Positions 35,447 through 44,104 of a stretch of 64,000 nucleotides of DNA are shown one piece after another. The stretch is from NCBI GenBank assembly GCA_965204725.1, contig OZ242005.1, forward strand, positions 4,224,001-4,288,000. The letters are read 5' to 3'. A program made the position numbers and the translations under genes. The notes beneath the pieces are model-generated. The model did no database searches. It saw only the letters and a list, made by a program, of their open reading frames with translations, and was not told the DNA's origin. How positions within the stretch are numbered: the first letter of the stretch is position 1; each line of letters opens with the position of its first letter. The DNA comes from Candidatus Latescibacterota bacterium. Lineage in GTDB: Bacteria > Latescibacterota > UBA2968 > UBA8231.

Positions 35447-36604
35447 ATGAAAATTCACGAATATCAAGCCAAAAAAATTCTGCGCCAGTACCAAGTCGCC
35501 GTACCTAGTGGCACCATGGCCACGACAGCCAACCAAGCCGAACGCGTGGCCGCCGAATTGGGTGGAAAGGTCGTAATTAAGGCCCAAATTCACGCTGGAG
35601 GTCGAGGCAAGGGCGGGGGCGTCAAATTGGCGGCTAACCCCGAAGAGGTGCGCCAAGCGACCAGCGAGATTCTCGGCATGCAGCTCGTTACTCACCAGAC
35701 TGGCCCTGAGGGCCAAAAGGTCAAGCAAGTCCTAGTGGAGAAGGCCTCGGATATAGAACGCGAGTTTTACTTGGGCATCACTCTCGACCGGGCACAGAGT
35801 AAGCCAGTGGTTATGGCCAGCCAAGAGGGCGGAGTTGAAATTGAGGAGGTTGCCGTTGCGACCCCAGAAAAAATTCTCAAGGAAACGGTCGATCCTAGAG
35901 TGGGGCTACAGGCATTCCAAGCAACACGCCTAGCATTTGGGCTTGGCTTTGAAGGCAAACAGGTTCGCCAAGCAATCAGCTTTATCCTTAGCCTCTATAG
36001 GGCCTATGTCGATGCCGACTGCTCGCTGGTCGAGATCAATCCCTTGGTGGTGACCGCCGACGGGCAGCTCTTGGCACTGGATGCCAAAATAGACATAGAC
36101 GACAACGCGCTCTTCCGCCACCCCGACTTAGCGAAAATGCACGATGTGGATGAAGAGGAGGAATTGGAGGTCGAAGCAGCCAAATACGGTCTGAACTACA
36201 TCAAACTCGACGGCAATATCGGTTGTATGGTCAACGGTGCTGGATTGGCGATGGCCACTATGGACATCATCAAGCTCTCGGGTGCCGAGCCAGCTAATTT
36301 TCTGGATGTAGGCGGAGGGGCCAGTGCTGAGACCGTGGAAAACGGCTTCCGAATTTTGCTTTCCGACCCGAATGTAAAGGCCATACTCATCAATATCTTC
36401 GGAGGCATTGTGCGCTGTGACCGCGTGGCCGCAGGCGTGATTGAGGCGCGCAAAAACATTGAAGTCAATGTGCCTATCGTCGTGCGACTAGCCGGGACCA
36501 ACGCGGAGGTGGCTGCCGAAATGCTGGAAAACTCCGACATGGACTTTGCCGTTGGGCACGGACTAAAAGACGCGGCGGCGATGGTCAAGGCGACTATTCC
36601 ATAA
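35447..36604 (+). CDS. sucC: Succinyl-CoA synthetase beta subunit
   Basis: [41 protein letters not shown]. Confidence 0.98.
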
Positions 36605-36617
36605 GAGGAGTACAGGG

Positions 36618-37487
36618 ATGAGTGTTTTAATCGACGAAAACACCAAGGTTTTTGTACAGGCAATTACTGGGTCGGAGGGCTCTTTTCACACTCGACAAAT
36701 GCTGGAGTACGGCACAAAGGTGGTAGGAGGAGCAACACCTGGCAAAGGCGGCCAAGAATTTGAAGGCATTCCGGTGTTTAATACGGTCGCTGAAGGCGTT
36801 GAGGCCTCTGGTGCCAATGCTTCAATCATCTTTGTGCCAGCCCCCTTTGCCGCCGATGCCATTATGGAAGCGGCCGATGCCGGTCTAGAGTTGGTCATCT
36901 GTATCAGCGAAAATATTCCCGTGAGCGACATGGTTAAAGCCTACGATTATGTACAGGCGCGCTCTACCCGGCTGATCGGGCCTAATTGCCCCGGCGTCAT
37001 CTCGCCTGGGAAGTGCAAAGTCGGCATTATGCCCGACTTTATTCACCAGCTAGGTCGCGTGGGTATTATCTCACGTAGCGGAACGCTGACCTACGAAGCC
37101 GTGGGGCAGCTTACTGAGCGGGGCCTAGGCCAGTCCACTGCTATCGGCATTGGCGGCGACCCAATTATCGGTACGCGCTTTGTGGACGCGCTGGCACTTT
37201 TTAAGGACGATCCTGAAACCGATGCAGTCGTGATGATCGGCGAGATCGGCGGCACCGCTGAAGAAGAAGCGGCCGCCTATATCAAAGAGTGCTACGACAT
37301 GCCTGTCATTGGCTTTATCGCGGGGCGCACGGCACCTCCGGGGCGGCGGATGGGACATGCAGGAGCTATTATTTCAGGTGGTAAGGGAACAGCCGAGGAC
37401 AAGATGGCGGCGATGCGGGAAGCCGGAATTCACATCTGTGAGAGTCCTGCGGAAATTGGGGAAACGGTAGAGAAGGTGCTGGGCTGA
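36618..37487 (+). CDS. sucD: Succinyl-CoA synthetase alpha subunit
   Basis: [28 protein letters not shown]. Confidence 0.98.
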
Positions 37488-37600
37488 TTGGGGATGTTTT
37501 TCTACGTTCAACAATTCAAGAGTCTGGCTGGGAAAGGTTTCTCCTAACCAATAGCGGCATAACGGCGGGTTGGCGGCTAAGAAGCAGGAGTCAGGCAGAG

Positions 37601-38566
37601 TTATGAGGCTACTGGGTAATTATCAAGCCGCCTTTGAATGAGCATCGCCTGTAGATAACCCCGAGTGCGGCTGGACCAGAACAGGTAACTAAAGACCAAA
37701 TCCGGGACATAGGTTTTCATAAGCCAGCGGGTCAACCAGCGGATTGGATAGTGAATCGGCGACAACAGGGCTAGCTGAAGTGCTATCCGCCGAGGAGAAA
37801 ATGCAGAGGCCCTGATAAAGTCCAGCCGGAGGACGGCGTCAAGTTCAGGGTGCTTGCGTAAAAGGACGGGGATTGACTTGCTGCCGTAAGTTTGCATTAA
37901 GCGGCAGAGTGGCTCCAATGAACGCAAGTGATAGTGGTAGGACAGGGCTTCAGGGGCATAGTAAAGCGGAATACCCGCTAAATGGAGGCGGTACCCCAAT
38001 TCTAGGTCTTCGCCGCCATAAGCAGTGAGATCCTCGTCGAAAAAACCCACGCGGCGCAGAGACGACCGGCGAACCGAGGAGTTGCCGGTGACGAAGCACT
38101 TGAAAGGTATGGGCTTATCCGTGTCGACCCTGTGAACACCCCTTCTTTCGAGATAGCGGGTCAGGGATGTAGTGGGAATTTCAGGGGCAAAGCGGATGTT
38201 ACCGATAAAAACAGCTTCTACATGGGTTTGATGCCGTTGGGCATGGGCACGGAGAAAATTTATGCCAACGGTCATATCGCTGTCGAGAAAGACAACTACA
38301 TCACCGCTGGCTACTCGAAGTGCCGCGTTGCGTGCCCGAGCGCGTCCCTGATTCTGTTCGTTGCGAATCAACCGCAACTGTAAAGGCGCGACTGCCGCAT
38401 GTAAGTGATCGGCGTCCAAGTGGGGGGAGGCGTCGTCCACCACGATGATTTGAATCGCCTCATGGGGATAATTTTGCTGCGACAGGCTTTTAAGTGCTGC
38501 TTCGAGGCACTCAGGCTCGCCATAGGTAGGCATCACGATGCTGAGCGTCAGCGGGGAGGCACTCAT
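37601..38566 (-). CDS. Family 2 glycosyltransferase
   Basis: SIVMPTY, VVDDAS, ARN, FLDSD, GGEDLELGYRL. Confidence 0.92.
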   Translation of the reverse strand: MSASPLTLSIVMPTYGEPECLEAALKSLSQQNYPHEAIQIIVVDDASPHLDADHLHAAVAPLQLRLIRNEQNQGRARARNAALRVASGDVVVFLDSDMTVGINFLRAHAQRHQTHVEAVFIGNIRFAPEIPTTSLTRYLERRGVHRVDTDKPIPFKCFVTGNSSVRRSSLRRVGFFDEDLTAYGGEDLELGYRLHLAGIPLYYAPEALSYHYHLRSLEPLCRLMQTYGSKSIPVLLRKHPELDAVLRLDFIRASAFSPRRIALQLALLSPIHYPIRWLTRWLMKTYVPDLVFSYLFWSSRTRGYLQAMLIQRRLDNYPVAS

Positions 38567-39678
38567 GCTAGAGTTGCATAAAGCTGGGTGAGTTGGGCGG
38601 CTTCTCGTTCCCAGTTATAGTGCCGTGCCGCCTGCAAACTCGCCTTAGTACATGCCTCCCGCTGCTCTGCATTGTCCAAAAAAGTGGCGATCTGCTCTCG
38701 GATGGCAACTATATCGGTTGGATCGACCGTAGCCCCGGTACGTGTTTCGCGGACGATACGTTGCATTTCAGGAAAGTTGCTAGCTAGGACTGGTAGCCCG
38801 GCCATCATATATTCAAAGAGCTTGTTGGGCAGAGAGTAGTAAAAGCTCTTGCCCGTGCCTTTTATCAGACACAGTCCCAAGTCGGCCGAGCAAGTATAGT
38901 TGTGAAGTTGGTGAAAGGGCACCCGGGGAATAAAGAAGACTTGGTCGTCTAGTCTCGCAGCGCGGACTTGGTTCCGCAGGGCCTGTTCGCTAGGCCCGTC
39001 CCCAATCAAAACTAAGGCAGCGGCAAGCCCAGCAGCGGCCTCAATTTGCTCGCGCAAGCCATTTTCGGTGAGGAATCCCCCTTGGTAGAGAACAATAGGG
39101 CGGTCATCGGGCAGGTCCAGCGTTTCGCGTATCAGGTTGCTTTGGTCCTTATGGCGGAATAGAGGCAAATTATGCAGAACAACGACCTCGTCAAGGCCGT
39201 AACGCTCCTTGAGTGATTGGGCGATAGACCCACTGACGGTTATGACTCGATCTACCTGTCTTATCAGCCGCTTCTCTAGCAAACTCCAGCAGGACCGCAT
39301 CAGCGGCCGACTGACCAGTGAGGATTGTTCGGTCCAAAATTCGTGTGAGTCATAAACGATGGGCCGATCTAGTCGCCGCGCAGCCCGCACTGCTGGCCAA
39401 AGCGAATCTAGGTCGTGGGCGTGATAGGCATCCGGGTGGATCTCAACCAATAGTCGATAAGCTCGTTGCCAAAACAAAGGATAGAGGCGGCGCAATGAGA
39501 GGCTGCGGTCTAGCGGAATCGGATGGACTTCAAAATTGTCCCATCCCTTGAGAGGGGCTGAGTTGAACGAGGAGGCGACAATGACGACTTGGTAACCAGC
39601 ACGGTGTAGCGAAGTGGCCTCTCGGTAGATGCGGTAGTCGAAATTCAGGTCGGTGAAGGCGACCATACAGATACGCAT
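38563..39678 (-). CDS. Family 4 glycosyltransferase
   Basis: HAHD, YDSHE, SLPNKLFEYMMAGLPV, YNWE; likely ATG 39678. Confidence 0.92.
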   Translation of the reverse strand: MRICMVAFTDLNFDYRIYREATSLHRAGYQVVIVASSFNSAPLKGWDNFEVHPIPLDRSLSLRRLYPLFWQRAYRLLVEIHPDAYHAHDLDSLWPAVRAARRLDRPIVYDSHEFWTEQSSLVSRPLMRSCWSLLEKRLIRQVDRVITVSGSIAQSLKERYGLDEVVVLHNLPLFRHKDQSNLIRETLDLPDDRPIVLYQGGFLTENGLREQIEAAAGLAAALVLIGDGPSEQALRNQVRAARLDDQVFFIPRVPFHQLHNYTCSADLGLCLIKGTGKSFYYSLPNKLFEYMMAGLPVLASNFPEMQRIVRETRTGATVDPTDIVAIREQIATFLDNAEQREACTKASLQAARHYNWEREAAQLTQLYATLA

Positions 39679-39706
39679 GACGTATAAAGGAATAGGCATA
39701 AAGGCC

Positions 39707-39747
39707 AAAAATAAAAGCAGCCCTTTTATTAAAAATGGGCTGCTCTT
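39707..39747 (-). terminator. Intrinsic terminator between the structured RNA and the GT4 gene
   Basis: Minus strand AAGAGCAGCCC-ATTTTTAATAAAA-GGGCTGCTTTT-ATTTTT. Confidence 0.8.
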
Positions 39748-39753
39748 AAAGAA

Positions 39754-39911
39754 AGAGTGTGGCGGCCAGATGGTGTGATCTTGAAACGCAAGTGAGATCC
39801 TCAAACGAGGCGGTGTGGGGAGGTAGTTTTGAAGATCTCAATGACCCGAAAAGGGAAATCCGAGCTTCGCGGATCAGGACTTTGGCCACGCTATGCGGAC
39901 CGCCACACTCT
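39754..39911 (-). ncRNA. Unclassified structured RNA (~160 nt)
   Basis: 12-bp perfect terminal stem (39754-65/39900-11), three internal hairpins, G-U pairs only on the minus strand, own promoter and terminator. Confidence 0.7.
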
Positions 39912-39923
39912 ATGTTGGAAACT

Positions 39924-39952
39924 AAAATACACACGCTAGATTGTGTTGTCAA
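39924..39952 (-). promoter_or_regulatory. Promoter for the structured RNA with palindromic site
   Basis: TTGACA-N17-TATTTT with extended TG; CACA-N8-TGTG at 39930-39945. Confidence 0.7.
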
Positions 39953-39989
39953 GTAGAAAAACATGCGATAAGAAAATGGTAATGGAGTC

Positions 39990-40018
39990 TTGCACACTTA
40001 CAAGTGTGTGCATATCTT
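39990..40018 (+). promoter_or_regulatory. Promoter and operator of the XRE gene
   Basis: TTGCAC-N17-TATCTT with inverted repeat CACACTT-AC-AAGTGTG at 39993-40008. Confidence 0.7.
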
Positions 40019-40058
40019 AGTAGAGGAGATGGTTGAAAATCGTTCGGAAGGATCGCAG

Positions 40059-40592
40059 ATGCAGTTTGCTGAAATGATCAAGGAGGCCCGGCTACAAGCC
40101 CATCTAAGCCAGCAGAGATTGGCCGAACAGCTCGTGACGGCACGAAGGCCCAAGGGCGTATGGGCAACCTATATAGGACAAATTGAGAAGGGGGAGAAGG
40201 TCCCTTCTGACGAAATATGTATCAAGTTGGCCGAGGTATTGGAACTAGACTCTAATAAAGTGTTGATTGCGGCCTATGAGGCCAAGGCGAGCTCGGAGGA
40301 AGGGCGTGCGATCTATGGCAAGATGATGCGCTTGCTGTCGGACCCAGTAGTCAACCAGCTCTTGTCTAACAAAGAGCCTTTGGATCCAGCCCTCTTGGGA
40401 TTGCTCTCTAATCCAGAAATCGTGGCTCTGCTCGGGGATAAACCGTGGTTAGAGGCCGTTGCCCGAGTGCATGAGAACCAGAAGGAACGCGATGTGTTGT
40501 CCCTGCTCGCTTTAGTAGAAGCGATGGACGACAAACAGTGGAATATGATAATGGGCCTTATAGAGACTTGGGGCTTAGGGCTGCCTAGTTAA
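40059..40592 (+). CDS. XRE-family HTH transcriptional regulator
   Basis: IKEARLQAHLSQQRLAE...TYIGQIEKGEKVPS...KLAEVL; start 40059 or 40029. Confidence 0.85.
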   Translation: MQFAEMIKEARLQAHLSQQRLAEQLVTARRPKGVWATYIGQIEKGEKVPSDEICIKLAEVLELDSNKVLIAAYEAKASSEEGRAIYGKMMRLLSDPVVNQLLSNKEPLDPALLGLLSNPEIVALLGDKPWLEAVARVHENQKERDVLSLLALVEAMDDKQWNMIMGLIETWGLGLPS

Positions 40593-40649
40593 GGAGGCCG
40601 ATTCGCTTAGCGGATGAGGAGAATCACAGCAAAAAGAGCTAATGTCTGG

Positions 40650-41108
40650 TTAGAAGTCGGGTAGTTGGTACTCGCCGCGCTCAATGGCTTGCTCTAACTC
40701 TTGGTGGAAGGTGCTGTCTAGGTGGGAAGTGATTTTCCAACCACTAGAATCGCGAAGAAAATAAAAGAATGGAGACGTGCGCTCATCGTCTATCGTTGAA
40801 GAATCAAAGAGTAGGTAGCCGATGCGCTCGTTGATGATGCGCTCTTCGGCGATTTCTCGACGCAGGTAAGTTTTTACTTCGGCTGGCGTCTTTTGCCGCC
40901 ATCGTTCGACAAAGCTCTGACGATCTTCTCCCCCTACTTGCGAAGAATTGAAACATTCCCAAAGCAGGTCAAAGTCGCGGTTTTCTAGCGCGTATTTATA
41001 GGTTTGGAAGGTCTGAGCCGGGTGGGAGAAGCGTTGGTCTATGTCTTCGCTGTTACAGCCGTGCAGGAGGGCGAGACAAAGAAATAGAAGAAATGGTTGT
41101 AAGGCCAT
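40650..41108 (-). CDS. Hypothetical lipoprotein
   Basis: Hydrophobic leader with lipobox LHGC; start could be 41147. Confidence 0.7.
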   Translation of the reverse strand: MALQPFLLFLCLALLHGCNSEDIDQRFSHPAQTFQTYKYALENRDFDLLWECFNSSQVGGEDRQSFVERWRQKTPAEVKTYLRREIAEERIINERIGYLLFDSSTIDDERTSPFFYFLRDSSGWKITSHLDSTFHQELEQAIERGEYQLPDF

Positions 41109-41188
41109 AGTGTGCAGCGCACGGGTCAGCATCTTGAGCAACGTCAACTACTTGGTAGGAGTAAGCCTACGACCCCCCAGATTGGGCT

Positions 41189-41884
41189 TCAGTGCTTGGC
41201 TTTATTAACGAGCAATTCGATTGCGTCACGTAGCCGAGCAGCCTCTTCGTATTCTTCGCAGATAACGGCCTGTTGTAGCTGGTGCTGAAGCAGACTGAGT
41301 TCGTCTTTCTCTTCCTTGAGGGGCTGTTGAGTTTCGGCCTCTTCAGCGTTCCGCTTCGAGGGGCGGATGTCGACCGTATCGGTTTCTATATTGAGCGACT
41401 TGGAAATCTGCGTTTCAAACTCATAAAAACGGTTCAGGGTGTGTTCAACGTCCAAGTCGGTCTCCAAAGGATCCAAGCCCACCTCGTCCAGCAACGCATG
41501 AGAAACGTAGATAGGCGCATCAGTACGCAAGGCCAAAGCAATAGCGTCGCTGGGACGTGCATCGATGTCTTTTATTGTGTGATCCTTCTCAATGACGACC
41601 CTTGCGTAGTACGTTGAGTGGCGCACGTTGTGAATGACGACTTGGCGCACATTTACCGCAAGGTCATCAACCATAGAAGAGAGCAAGTCGTAGGAAATCG
41701 GACGTATAGGCCCATCGTTTTCTAGCCGCATCCGAATGGCGGCGGCCTCAAATTCGCCAATGGGAATGGGCAAGAGCCGCGGCAATTCACCTTCCTTCTC
41801 GCTTAACCAGACCAAGGGCCTATCCTCTCGCAAGTAGGGACTAACCTTGACCACGGTCATCTCGACTAAAGAGGTATTACTCAT
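41189..41884 (-). CDS. Bifunctional nuclease (DUF151) with C-terminal UVR domain
   Basis: LPIPIGEFEA, RPISYDL, DARPSDAIALALR, EEYEEAARLRD. Confidence 0.9.
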   Translation of the reverse strand: MSNTSLVEMTVVKVSPYLREDRPLVWLSEKEGELPRLLPIPIGEFEAAAIRMRLENDGPIRPISYDLLSSMVDDLAVNVRQVVIHNVRHSTYYARVVIEKDHTIKDIDARPSDAIALALRTDAPIYVSHALLDEVGLDPLETDLDVEHTLNRFYEFETQISKSLNIETDTVDIRPSKRNAEEAETQQPLKEEKDELSLLQHQLQQAVICEEYEEAARLRDAIELLVNKAKH

Positions 41885-42501
41885 TAATCATCCCTGTTGA
41901 GGCGGCTAATCTCGTCGCGAAGCCGTGCCGCCTCCTCATAGATTTCTTCGGCAACAGCTTGGCACATGCGTCTTTTGAGTTGGTCTAACTGGCTGACGGC
42001 TGGTGGGGCGATGATGGGACGATCTGCCTGCGGTGCGGCCACGGATAGGGCGAGGGCTTCAACTTCAGTTGGAACCCATTCGCCATCGTCGGAGCGAACG
42101 CAGCCCACCTCTTTGAGGATTTCGATGGCGGCGTAGATCGGTGCGCGAGAGCGCAAGGCTAGGGCAATTGCATCGCTGGGACGTGCGTCGAAAGTATGGG
42201 GCTTGCCCGCGTAGTCAACGAGGTGAACCTCGGCGTAGTACGTTCCCTCGCGTGAGTTAAAGTAAGTGATTTCGACCCGGGCTACCCGAGCATCGACGTT
42301 GGCGAGAATCTGATGGGTTAGGTCATAACTGAGTGGGCGCACAAACCGCCGCTTGCTGTGGGCCATAGAAATGGCTGCCGCCTCAAAGCGGCCGATGACA
42401 ATGTGCAGATAATGGTTGCCCTCGACTTCTTTGAGTACTACTTCAGGGTATAAAGAGTGAGATTTGCTGCTTAAGACCTCCTTGACTTCCATCAGAACCA
42501 T
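41884..42501 (-). CDS. Bifunctional nuclease (DUF151) with C-terminal UVR domain, paralogue
   Basis: IGRFEA, RPLSYDL, DARPSDAIALALR, EIYEEAARLRDEI. Confidence 0.9.
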   Translation of the reverse strand: MVLMEVKEVLSSKSHSLYPEVVLKEVEGNHYLHIVIGRFEAAAISMAHSKRRFVRPLSYDLTHQILANVDARVARVEITYFNSREGTYYAEVHLVDYAGKPHTFDARPSDAIALALRSRAPIYAAIEILKEVGCVRSDDGEWVPTEVEALALSVAAPQADRPIIAPPAVSQLDQLKRRMCQAVAEEIYEEAARLRDEISRLNRDD

Positions 42502-42572
42502 AGCGGTACACCGCGGTTTAGTGGGCTACTGTCGATTGGTGTGTGAAATATAATACGGCTTCAAAGAAGGTG

Positions 42573-42752
42573 TCAACCGACGTGTGTTTCTTGCCCATCC
42601 GGCAAATCGCCCTCTTTGTTGCTCAACTTCAGCTCAAGTTCTGAGAGTTGGCGGCCTAGTTCCCCAGTGCGCCGGTTTAGGTGCATCAAATAGGCAAAAA
42701 GCACGACCCACACAGCCGCGAAGGCGGCAAACAAATAGTGGAGATTGTCCAT
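42573..42752 (-). CDS. ccmD: CcmD family protein (not in ORF track)
   Basis: MDNLHYLFAAFAAVWVVLFAYLMHLNRR..., 59 aa, immediately after ccmC. Confidence 0.8.
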   Translation of the reverse strand: MDNLHYLFAAFAAVWVVLFAYLMHLNRRTGELGRQLSELELKLSNKEGDLPDGQETHVG

Positions 42753-42758
42753 AGTCTC

Positions 42759-43430
42759 TTACGTTTCGTCCGTTAGTTTTTGCTGCAGGAATGCCACGGC
42801 TTTTTCAATGCGGGCTAGTTCCATGCGTTGCGCTAGGAGGCGAAAGAACAGCAGGAAGAAAGCCGCGTAGCAGATCCACTTGGTGTATTGCATCATCGGC
42901 TCGAGTTCTACGTTGCGCGGCGGGTGTAGTTGTTGGTCGGCGGCCCACAGATCGACAGCGTAGTACACTAAAGGAACGTTGACGAAGGCGAGAATACCCA
43001 GTACAGCACTAGTGCGCTGTACCGGAGTAGAGTAAGCCCCATATCCTCGCACCATCAGGTAGGCCACGTAGATGGTGAAGGTGATCAGCATTGAGGTTAA
43101 GCGCGGCTCCCATCGCCAGTAAACCCCCCAGATGGGTTTAGCCCACAAAGGCCCAGTGATCAGCACGATCAACGCAAAGATCACGCCCAATTCGGCGGAG
43201 CATTGCGCTAGGCGGTCCCACTTGTCCTCGCGAGTGCGTAGATACTGTACACTGCCGACAAATACCAGAAAAAAAGCCAAGAACGAAGAAATCGCCGCCG
43301 GTACGTGAAAATAGAAGATTCGTTGGACGATTCCCATTTCTTTTTCTGTGGGTACCCAGAGAAAAATCGCCCCCAAGGCGACGAGCATAACCACAAAAAC
43401 CAAACAGGAGAATGGAACCGAACGCATCAT
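42759..43430 (-). CDS. ccmC: Heme exporter CcmC
   Basis: RIFYFHVP, TGPLWAKPIWGVYWRWEPRLT (WWD domain), LHP. Confidence 0.93.
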   Translation of the reverse strand: MMRSVPFSCLVFVVMLVALGAIFLWVPTEKEMGIVQRIFYFHVPAAISSFLAFFLVFVGSVQYLRTREDKWDRLAQCSAELGVIFALIVLITGPLWAKPIWGVYWRWEPRLTSMLITFTIYVAYLMVRGYGAYSTPVQRTSAVLGILAFVNVPLVYYAVDLWAADQQLHPPRNVELEPMMQYTKWICYAAFFLLFFRLLAQRMELARIEKAVAFLQQKLTDET

Positions 43431-44104
43431 TCCTCGATCGCGTATTCAAAAAGCATTAGGGAGAGTACCGTGAAAATCACCGCGTACACTCCCAACATTT
43501 GCAGGTGCGGAAAGAGCTCTTTGCAACAGTCGTTGACCAGCACTAGCTCCGTCGCCTTCACGCTGGAAATCACCGCCGGCAAGATCATGGGGAAGAGCAG
43601 GAGAGGCAGCATTAGCTCGCGCAAACGCATGTTGTTCGACAGTGCCGCAAAGAGCGTGCCCACCGATGCTATACAAGCCGATCCTAGGACGAAGACCGCT
43701 AGTAGGGGGAGCAAAAAGAAGCCTAGAGACAGATTAAAGAAGAGGGCGAAAAAGGGCAAACTCAGAATTTCAACCGCTAAAAGAAAAACAAAATTACCCA
43801 GCATTTTACCTAGGTAGATGGAACCGCGGTCCCCCGGTGCCAACAGCAATGCGTCGAGCGCGTCGTTTTCGCGTTCCTCGGCAAAAGAGCGGCCTAGACT
43901 CAGCAAGCTGGCAAAGACATAGGACGACCAGAGCGTACCAGGTCCAATCTCGCGTAGAGCGGTCTTACCTAAATCAAAGGAGAAGTTAAACACCAGCAAC
44001 ATTAACAATATAAAGAAGACCATCGGGCTGAGGCGTACCTTAGTACGCCACTCGGCCTTAAGATCCTTCCGCAGTATCGCCAGCGCACGCCCTAAAAAGC
44101 TCAT
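43427..44104 (-). CDS. ccmB: Heme exporter CcmB
   Basis: KDLKAEWR, E.EN..LD.L, LGK, LLLFP; ATG 44104. Confidence 0.92.
   Translation of the reverse strand: MSFLGRALAILRKDLKAEWRTKVRLSPMVFFILLMLLVFNFSFDLGKTALREIGPGTLWSSYVFASLLSLGRSFAEERENDALDALLLAPGDRGSIYLGKMLGNFVFLLAVEILSLPFFALFFNLSLGFFLLPLLAVFVLGSACIASVGTLFAALSNNMRLRELMLPLLLFPMILPAVISSVKATELVLVNDCCKELFPHLQMLGVYAVIFTVLSLMLFEYAIEE

Follow-up and report, generated by a model that had tools for sequence, protein, structure and literature searches.

Organization of the locus

The stretch of DNA analysed here, called the window throughout, comprises 64,000 nucleotides (nt) of a Candidatus Latescibacterota genome (G000, contig C1:4224001-4288000; 5.43 Mb, GC 0.60). 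It carries a gene for an XRE-family regulator of 177 amino acids (aa), referred to here as XRE (40059-40592, plus strand), which stands back to back with a structured small RNA (sRNA) of about 165 nt, RNA-L (39748-39916, minus strand, with inferred ends). Two palindromes occupy the divergent promoters of this pair. A comparison across the class suggests that XRE reads these palindromes and controls both itself and RNA-L, and that RNA-L has a pairing partner, the sRNA RNA-S, encoded elsewhere in the genome.

The promoter of RNA-L (39924-39952, minus strand), detected by a promoter scan with 10/12 consensus matches, consists of TTGACA (39952-39947), a 17-nt spacer and TATTTT (39929-39924), and its box (TTGACAAC...) is conserved class-wide. 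The putative XRE promoter (39990-40018, plus strand), in which TTGCAC (39990-39995) and TATCTT (40013-40018) are likewise separated by 17 nt, was read by eye; with 8/12 consensus matches it falls under the threshold of the scan, and it is conserved in 19/20 aligned loci of the genus, with equivalent hexamers kept in relatives. The putative operator O1, CACAC-TTACAA-GTGTG (CACACTTACAAGTGTG; 39993-40008), overlaps the -35 element and the spacer of the XRE promoter. Its counterpart O2, CACAC-GCTAGA-TTGTG (CACACGCTAGATTGTG; 39930-39945), has one arm mismatch and fills the spacer of the RNA-L promoter exactly. Neither site has a strand, and the distance between them in the window is 63 base pairs (bp). 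An earlier note on this DNA had described both palindromes, each overlapping one of two back-to-back promoters, and these observations hold. It had also assigned 7-bp arms to O1; such arms are present in G000 but are peculiar to it, and the conserved unit of O1 is limited to arms of 5 bp around a variable centre.

The comparison draws on 74 related loci from public genome records, all from uncultured organisms represented by metagenome-assembled genomes, mostly Candidatus Latescibacterota. At the level of the class it covers 132 genomes in families f1-f4, with 75 f1 genomes besides G000 and 56 genomes of f2-f4 in the search with the RNA-L model. The whole intergenic region was aligned across 20 loci of the same genus.

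A conserved motif at both promoters

Among the 20 loci of the genus, O1, O2 and both promoters are invariant or nearly so, whereas the approximately 30 nt between them and the leader of XRE vary freely. O2 is invariant in 19/20 loci, the remaining one (L026) having a single change in the centre. O1 keeps its arms around centres that read ACAAGT, ACTGGT or ACCAGT. The same holds further afield: the arms are always ACAC and GTGT, the centres are variable, and the motif is kept at both promoters across at least nine genera. In most f1 genera and in f3, each of the two promoters holds it in its -35/-10 spacer; in f2 and f4 it is found at the RNA promoter. Many relatives have a third site (O3) about 65 bp further into the RNA leader, and in many the sites repeat at intervals of about 63-68 bp, for example at -217/-149/-83 and -228/-160/-95. 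This third palindrome is carried by a leader of 66-85 nt that, in most genera, separates the RNA-L promoter from the RNA body (L026, L052, L053, L055, L056 and others). The subgroup of G000 has lost the leader (compare window 39912-39924), and its RNA-L promoter abuts the closing stem of the RNA.

The motif was counted in 14,075 nt of sequence upstream of XRE orthologues (32 non-redundant regions) and in 500 shuffles of these regions. They contain 45 copies of ACAC-N6-GTGT, while the shuffles average 0.17 and never exceed 2. The reverse arrangement GTGT-N6-ACAC has no copy and odd spacings have 0-1, while the counts for N8 and N10 (40 and 31) come for the most part from these N6 sites when they are read from one CA/GT step further out.

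Within G000, the exact 16-mer of O1 is unique, and perfect CACAC-N6-GTGTG sites number only three in the whole genome. A scan with the O1 16-mer allowing up to 3 mismatches was uninformative (12 matches in the genome versus 7 for the control). The ACAC-N6-GTGT core is not enriched genome-wide in G000, where its 12 sites are similar in number to other spacings; the regulon is therefore small, or not findable from the core alone. A relaxed YACAC-N6-GTGTR scan of the same genome returned five sites. One candidate for a promoter-spacer operator, at C1:1143575, was rejected as a chance match since it lies inside an 854-aa open reading frame (ORF) of an AT-rich island. This island (C1:1141000-1147300, local GC about 0.43 versus 0.60 for the genome) encodes, besides the 854-aa ORF, one of 559 aa and a DNA cytosine-methyltransferase-like protein, and is probably a defence or mobile island.

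The XRE regulator

Conservation of XRE among relatives begins at the ATG at 40059, not at the TTG at 39990 that opens the listed ORF (39990-40592). From Pfam, conservation and an AlphaFold2 (AF2) model, the protein comprises an N-terminal HTH_3 domain and an all-helical C-terminal domain of about 100 aa. The HTH_3 profile (PF01381) matches the ORF with 35.8 bits (cut-off 23; E 8.3e-9), while HTH_19 and HTH_31 stay under their cut-offs and NCBIfam returns sub-threshold helix-turn-helix (HTH) matches only. The AF2 model is all-helical, with a predicted local distance difference test score (pLDDT) of 89.6 and values of 92-98 over residues 1-70. Residues 1-74 superpose on the P22 c2 repressor (Z 11.3, root-mean-square deviation 2.0 A over 65 residues) in a five-helix, cI-like fold; other structural matches of this domain are ImmR (Z 10.8), DdrO (10.4), the 434 repressor (10.1) and C.AhdI (9.9). 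By sequence, matches among solved structures include C.BclI, C.AhdI, C.Csp231I and HipB. For the C-terminal domain, Foldseek against the pdb set gave nothing convincing (best full-length E 1.4e-3), the rows of VIA-align wide cover residues 1-90 only, and the ESM Atlas values of 0.79-0.80 are at chance level.

Structure prediction supports dimerization of XRE. The homodimer model reaches an ipSAE of 0.59, a value attained by 20/30 solved homodimers and 1/23 monomers, compared with 0.00 for the best control. Its interface is formed almost wholly by residues ~78-175, at least 82% of contacts are common to the runs, and the partner pLDDT is 82. A dimeric HTH protein fits the operator because the half-site centres of ACAC-N6-GTGT are 10 bp apart.

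A full-length XRE orthologue is found in 94/132 genomes of the class. In the protein alignment, which left out L123 and L148 (stop codons in range) as well as L114, L134, L136 and L142, the segment of the recognition helix, GVWxTYIGQIEKGEKVPS, is near-invariant class-wide, and a single DNA specificity of XRE across the class is therefore plausible.

Linkage of XRE, RNA-L and the motif

The covariance model of RNA-L (R1) detects one copy in 55/75 of the other f1 genomes and none in the 56 genomes of f2-f4, in which local matches of 13-21 bits are all that appears. In every f1 genome in which a full-length XRE and RNA-L occur together (43/43), they lie side by side in divergent orientation. Six f1 genera (g11, g14, g17, g18, g21 and g22) have RNA-L without XRE. 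A profile search found no XRE orthologue in 10/10 of their genomes, only two unrelated HTH proteins at 19.5 and 23.9 bits. No XRE gene flanks RNA-L in these ten genomes, and ACAC-N6-GTGT is present at or near the RNA-L promoter in 0/10 of their loci.

Two points follow from these genera. RNA-L persists in them and is therefore independent of XRE, and the motif is gone where XRE is gone. The latter is the strongest argument for XRE as the reader of the motif, and from it we infer that XRE is the protein that binds ACAC-N6-GTGT. A separate case is a g15 genome (G096 C1:2198969-2200506; L146) in which XRE appears broken: the match is interrupted by a TAG, and about 1.1 kb lie between its two halves. 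Both RNA-L and RNA-S are intact in this genome.

The conserved promoter box also occurs in f2 and f4 (TTGACAACACA..., its spacer again holding the site), but the divergent transcript that it drives there is another C-rich RNA, termed RNA-L2 and about 280 nt long (L113, L115, L116, L128 and other f2/f4 loci). It carries five or six UCCCC motifs, lies about 100-400 nt upstream of XRE, and is predicted to form a CACACAC...GUGUGUG hairpin within the transcript as well as a stem in which GGGUGGGGAGGG pairs with CCUCCCCA at long range. All exact matches to its C-rich core in f2 (21/21) lie 320-390 nt upstream of XRE. Homology between RNA-L2 and RNA-L is unproven, and a search for a partner of RNA-L2 with the complement of its C-rich core, a single pattern, returned RNA-L2 alone.

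RNA-L, a structured and probably abundant RNA

The fold of RNA-L, supported by covariation, is composed of five helices: an 11-bp closing stem (P1) with an adjoining 3-bp helix, P2, the hairpin P3 with a C-rich loop (UUCCCCUUUU), and the 12-bp hairpin P4. The P4 loop of about 27 nt (AAAACUACCUCCCCACACCGCCUCGUUUG; 39802-39831, minus strand) contains CCUCCCCACACCGCCUCG and, from its conservation and duplex energy, is the proposed site of pairing with RNA-S; its core CCCACACCG is invariant in 26/26 sequences from XRE-containing genera. Downstream lies a putative intrinsic terminator (39704-39744, minus strand), in which a AGCAGCCC...GGGCUGCU hairpin is followed by a U-tract. This hairpin is conserved with variation in its loop in the loci of the genus, and the loop exceeds 8 nt, which places it outside the limit of the terminator scan.

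The minimum free energy of RNA-L has a z-score of -6.45. Pairing extends to 95% of cells in an alignment of 41 sequences (15 genera), compared with 39-46% in slid controls; 20/38 pairs show compensatory changes, and 0/500 shuffles were as good. A covariance scan of window positions 36000-44000 with Rfam 15 (E<=1), extended to four related loci, placed no family on RNA-L, RNA-S or RNA-L2; chance-level matches occurred elsewhere only (WT1-AS_2, HgcG, miRNAs and suhB, E 0.05-0.84). The 6S model RF00013 had no match at E<=10 anywhere in G000, and no member of the 6S clan matched in 36000-44000 (E<=1). In two relatives (L021 and L025, from G023 and G001), a short tandem duplication of the 3' strand of the closing stem (GAGTGTGGCGGCCATGTGGCGGCC) offers two alternative 3' partners for P1.

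Transcription was assessed from assembled contigs of four RNA-library runs (X15-X18) that are at least 90% alike to the window. RNA contigs cover 39758-39891 in X15 and X16 (one study) and in X18 (another), with summed word depths of about 1e3-1.7e5, contig depth being a rough measure of expression that shows neither strand nor ends. The adjacent glycosyltransferase gene has a depth of 13-242 in the same three runs from the two studies. With an excess of 100-1000-fold over this gene, carry-over of DNA is hard to invoke, and RNA-L is taken to be a transcript of probably very high abundance. The segments 39705-39745 and 39910-39950 are uncovered by RNA contigs, as is the coding sequence of XRE in X15, X16 and X18, gaps from which absence cannot be concluded. 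In run X17, contigs overlie parts of the XRE gene of a relative.

A candidate partner RNA encoded in trans

The third perfect palindrome of G000, at C1:3505951, led to RNA-S, an sRNA of about 55 nt located 758 kb from the locus (C1:3505946-3505998 of G000; L151/L277). It has its own putative promoter (TTGATT-17-TATATT), a 5' sequence that reads CUCACACGAGGCGGUGUGGGAGG, and a terminator hairpin followed by U8. RNA-S is an independent unit, because about 1.5 kb separate it in most members of the genus from the glucokinase-like gene that follows it in G000. Its terminator stem covaries and the 18-19 nt at its 5' end are invariant. The covariance model of RNA-S (R2) finds it in 30/30 genomes of g1, 7/8 of g16, 5/5 of g19, 2/3 of g9, 2/2 of g15, 1/1 of g12, 1/2 of g6 and 1/1 of g7. 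With further copies recognized by eye in g8 and g10, it is present in at least ten genera in all. R2 has no strong match in the XRE-less genera g11, g13, g14, g17, g18, g21 and g22, nor in g20. Within about 10 nt after the RNA-S terminator, a box (A/T)TTGCTCGG(A/G)NC recurs in g6, g7, g8, g9, g10, g12, g15 and g19 (L216, L219, L295-L306); a gene might end there, or the box might be some other element.

The invariant 5' segment of RNA-S is complementary to the P4 loop of RNA-L over about 19 nt. The duplex with the loop alone has a predicted energy of -39.9 kcal/mol, compared with -14.7 +/- 3.2 for 2000 shuffles (minimum -30.6); loop-only duplexes were used since cofold and full-length duplexfold cannot model the pairing of a loop with a 5' end without opening P4. 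The two genomes of g15 have CCGUCUCG for CCGCCUCG in the loop (C to U) and CGAGACGG for CGAGGCGG in RNA-S (G to A), a compensatory change between unlinked genes. A change in g12 yields a G.U pair in the duplex. In genera that lack both XRE and RNA-S, the P4 loop is no longer invariant, and 8/10 sequences differ within CACACC. The compensatory change, a single event, lends support to a pairing of RNA-L with RNA-S.

In g1 and g16, the 5' end of RNA-S is a perfect CACAC-GAGGCG-GUGUG. This palindrome was considered as an operator of XRE and rejected in general, the spacing or left arm being altered in g6, g9, g10, g15 and g19. We read it as a probable by-product of pairing, not conserved outside g1 and g16. 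A search across the class with a 15-mer and one mismatch was too noisy to use, most matches falling in coding sequence.

Sites upstream of mraZ

Between the trmB terminator and the mraZ promoter, G000 has another of its three perfect sites, with a related palindrome 7 nt off. The two adjacent palindromes, GCACACTAATTTGTGC and CACACTTATTTGTGTG (C1:1976185-1976223; approximately 1478-1516 of L006), are 50-100 nt upstream of the mraZ promoter, and three MraZ-box repeats (GTGGTGGAAA) separate this promoter from the start of mraZ in G000. In 11/17 readable orthologous loci, from g1, g8, g12 and g19, all of which contain XRE, one to three copies of ACAC-N6-GTGT are located 50-100 nt upstream of the mraZ -35 element. 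Their centres differ in every lineage. No copies were seen upstream of mraZ in g6, g10, g15, g17 and g22 among the same 17 loci. XRE may thus also act on the cell-division (dcw) operon.

A proposed circuit and its alternatives

The account that we consider fairly probable holds that XRE is a dimeric HTH protein of the cI/C-protein kind which represses its own gene and RNA-L, and that the P4 loop of RNA-L pairs with RNA-S. Dimers of XRE would recognize ACAC-N6-GTGT and fill O1 and O2, as well as O3 where it is present. Occupancy of O1 would shut the xre promoter, leading to autorepression, and occupancy of O2 would shut the RNA-L promoter; the spacing of about 63-68 bp between sites suggests cooperative or looped binding. 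A signal might be sensed through the C-terminal domain of XRE. Once transcribed, RNA-L would be a stable, abundant RNA with two single-stranded C-rich loops. The P4 loop would pair with the G-rich 5' end of RNA-S such that one RNA probably titrates the other in the style of a sponge and its regulator, and free C-rich loops of RNA-L probably target G-rich, Shine-Dalgarno-like regions of mRNAs. Repression appears to be the sign of regulation because the RNA-L promoter is functional without XRE, has a consensus -35 element and a 17-nt spacer, and bears the site inside that spacer.

The earlier note had put forward an autoregulated XRE that controls the RNA in a small regulatory circuit. The first part draws strong comparative support from the motif at both promoters in at least nine genera, the linkage in f1 and the joint loss of motif and XRE; autoregulation does not extend in evident form to f2 and f4, in which no site overlaps the XRE promoter. 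As to the second part, the circuit appears wider than proposed, given the motif upstream of mraZ and RNA-S as a candidate partner encoded in trans.

Several observations besides the bare XRE promoter of f2 and f4 speak against the favoured account. O2 has an imperfect arm (TTGTG) in this genus, and two g16 genomes (G097 and G098) keep both operator-like sites beside RNA-L with only a diverged XRE-like gene on another contig. XRE is present in g6, g10 and g15, yet mraZ has no motif upstream there. The genera with XRE may form one clade, and those without it may share a single ancestral loss; the joint occurrence of XRE, motif and RNA-S, and the joint disappearance of gene and motif, would then amount to few independent events. 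The extreme abundance of RNA-L in situ, itself read from so rough a measure as contig depth, means that repression, if any, can be no more than partial in that setting. For the pairing of the two RNAs, the covariation in trans is a single event, and RNA-S of g9 has one A.A mismatch.

On the same operators, XRE could instead be an activator or a dual regulator of RNA-L, as are the C proteins of restriction-modification systems at OL/OR. C.BclI, C.AhdI and C.Csp231I are indeed among its best sequence matches of solved structure, RNA-L is very abundant where XRE-carrying strains live, and two or three sites every ~65 bp would permit switching that depends on occupancy. This option is nevertheless doubtful: an operator in an optimal 17-nt spacer beside a consensus TTGACA is in the classic position of a repressor, and in genera that lack XRE a similar promoter, with no site, serves RNA-L, so an activator is not needed. 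The motif might also belong to another transcription factor, with the XRE gene a mere neighbour, as its occurrence upstream of mraZ, far from XRE, and the sites retained in G097 and G098 without an adjacent XRE would allow. We judge this to be unlikely, since the sites overlap the promoter of XRE itself in most f1 genera and f3, the motif is absent from all ten RNA-L loci of XRE-less genomes, and half-sites spaced by 10 bp suit an HTH dimer such as XRE is predicted to form. That the palindromes are RNA or DNA hairpins, for instance leader structures or processing sites, or merely conserved promoter spacers, is highly improbable. The third site in the transcribed leader would fold, as a 10-bp stem in L026 and as CACACAC...GUGUGUG in the f2/f4 RNA. 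O1 and O2, however, are upstream of the inferred transcription starts and hence not in RNA, the arms are kept as sequence (ACAC/GTGT) without stem-like covariation, and ahead of the mraZ promoter the motif recurs in DNA that is not transcribed.

The earlier note had speculated that RNA mimics the operator, pointing to a CACACTC in the closing stem of RNA-L, which was found at 39906-39912. Under such a decoy scheme, CACAC/GUGUG in the closing stem and P4 loop of RNA-L, or in its duplex with RNA-S, would titrate XRE. The 169 nt of RNA-L contain CACAC three times and GUGUG once, RNA-S of g1 and g16 starts with the palindrome, and the CACAC of the P4 loop is invariant in XRE-containing genera and altered in 8/10 XRE-less sequences. 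The closing-stem GUGUG/CACAC, however, is equally invariant in XRE-less genera; the RNA-S palindrome is lost or respaced in g6, g9, g10, g15 and g19 while complementarity to RNA-L stays; HTH_3 domains are known as readers of B-form DNA; and pairing with RNA-S alone accounts for the constraint on the loop. A decoy role is accordingly unsupported and given very little credence. Much the same holds for a three-part switch, a speculative extension in which the half-site embedded in both RNA-L and RNA-S would make their duplex, or a CACAC-N6-GUGUG hairpin at the 5' end of RNA-S, a decoy or ligand of XRE, perhaps via its C-terminal domain. If true, the ratio of RNA-L to RNA-S would thereby be coupled to how strongly xre, RNA-L and the cell-division operon of mraZ are transcribed.

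Neighbouring genes

Convergent with XRE is an ORF of 165 aa (window 40650-41147, minus strand) that has no Pfam match and whose N-terminus, with LLHGC, resembles the signal of a lipoprotein. In more distant members of the genus another gene stands downstream of XRE, in L026 a HEAT-repeat-like ORF. Beyond the 165-aa ORF, two tandem paralogues (window 41189-42501, minus strand) have a bifunctional-nuclease (BFN) domain fused to a UvrB/C-like motif. They encode 231 aa (41189-41884) and 205 aa (41884-42501).

Relation to known systems

XRE resembles the phage repressors cI, P22 c2 and 434 and the C proteins in its five-helix HTH fold, in half-sites one helical turn apart, in an inverted-repeat site over its own promoter and in predicted dimerization. 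Unlike cI and C proteins, it is chromosomal, single-copy and class-wide in Latescibacterota, outside any phage or restriction-modification module. It also differs from them by a helical C-terminal domain of about 100 aa without a clear structural match and by a putative target that is an sRNA gene.

Divergent pairs of a transcription factor and an sRNA, with a shared control region and a self-controlled regulator, are represented by OxyR-oxyS, GcvA-gcvB and SgrR-sgrS. Their regulators are LysR-type or other activators, and they are found in Proteobacteria. XRE and RNA-L are likewise arranged back to back with a shared control region, but they involve an XRE-type protein in the positions of a repressor, in another phylum, and an RNA that outlives the loss of its regulator. 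RNA-L is also similar to 6S RNA (RF00013) in size, long closing stem and abundance, and no other 6S candidate was detected in G000. However, it has no RF00013 match, and where 6S RNA forms a rod with a central bubble, RNA-L is predicted to have two hairpins in a three-way arrangement.

Two further systems invite comparison in their mode of action. In Bacillus subtilis, the sRNA RoxS/RsaE has C-rich single-stranded regions and is accompanied by the sponge RosA, each under its own transcriptional repressor (PMC8216469). RoxS/RosA and the putative pair RNA-L/RNA-S are alike in combining a C-rich sRNA with an independently transcribed pairing sRNA, a likeness in mode of action. They differ in that there is no homology of sequence or structure, Rfam giving no RsaE/RoxS match here, and that it is the longer, abundant RNA-L that bears the C-rich loops, with a partner of about 55 nt. 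The 6C sRNA of Actinobacteria, in the part of a paper that describes it, uses C-rich hairpin loops as pairing sites and forms G-C-rich duplexes without a chaperone (PMC6486639). As far as that part allows comparison, 6C and RNA-L are both conserved RNAs with C-rich hairpin loops that differ in fold, size and lineage, again without an Rfam match. RNA-L and RNA-S have the features of a sponge pair, each with its own promoter and terminator and with about 19 nt of complementarity between a loop and a 5' end. The type of circuit, an autoregulated HTH repressor with a divergent sRNA, is therefore known; what is new are the RNA families, the RNA partner in trans and the possible link to mraZ.

Significance

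Latescibacterota (former WS3) is a phylum without a cultured model, and a full-text search of the literature found no paper on sRNAs in it. The locus provides a class-wide regulator with a defined candidate operator, ACAC-N6-GTGT, that is open to test. It also adds two or three new RNA families, one of which apparently ranks, in sponge and marine metatranscriptomes, with the most abundant transcripts of these bacteria. RNA-L and RNA-S represent a candidate sRNA-sponge pair that is backed by a covarying change between unlinked genes. These predictions, which include a possible tie between this regulatory module and the mraZ/dcw cell-division promoter, lend themselves to tests by synthetic DNA, synthetic RNA and heterologous reporters that need no cultured organism.

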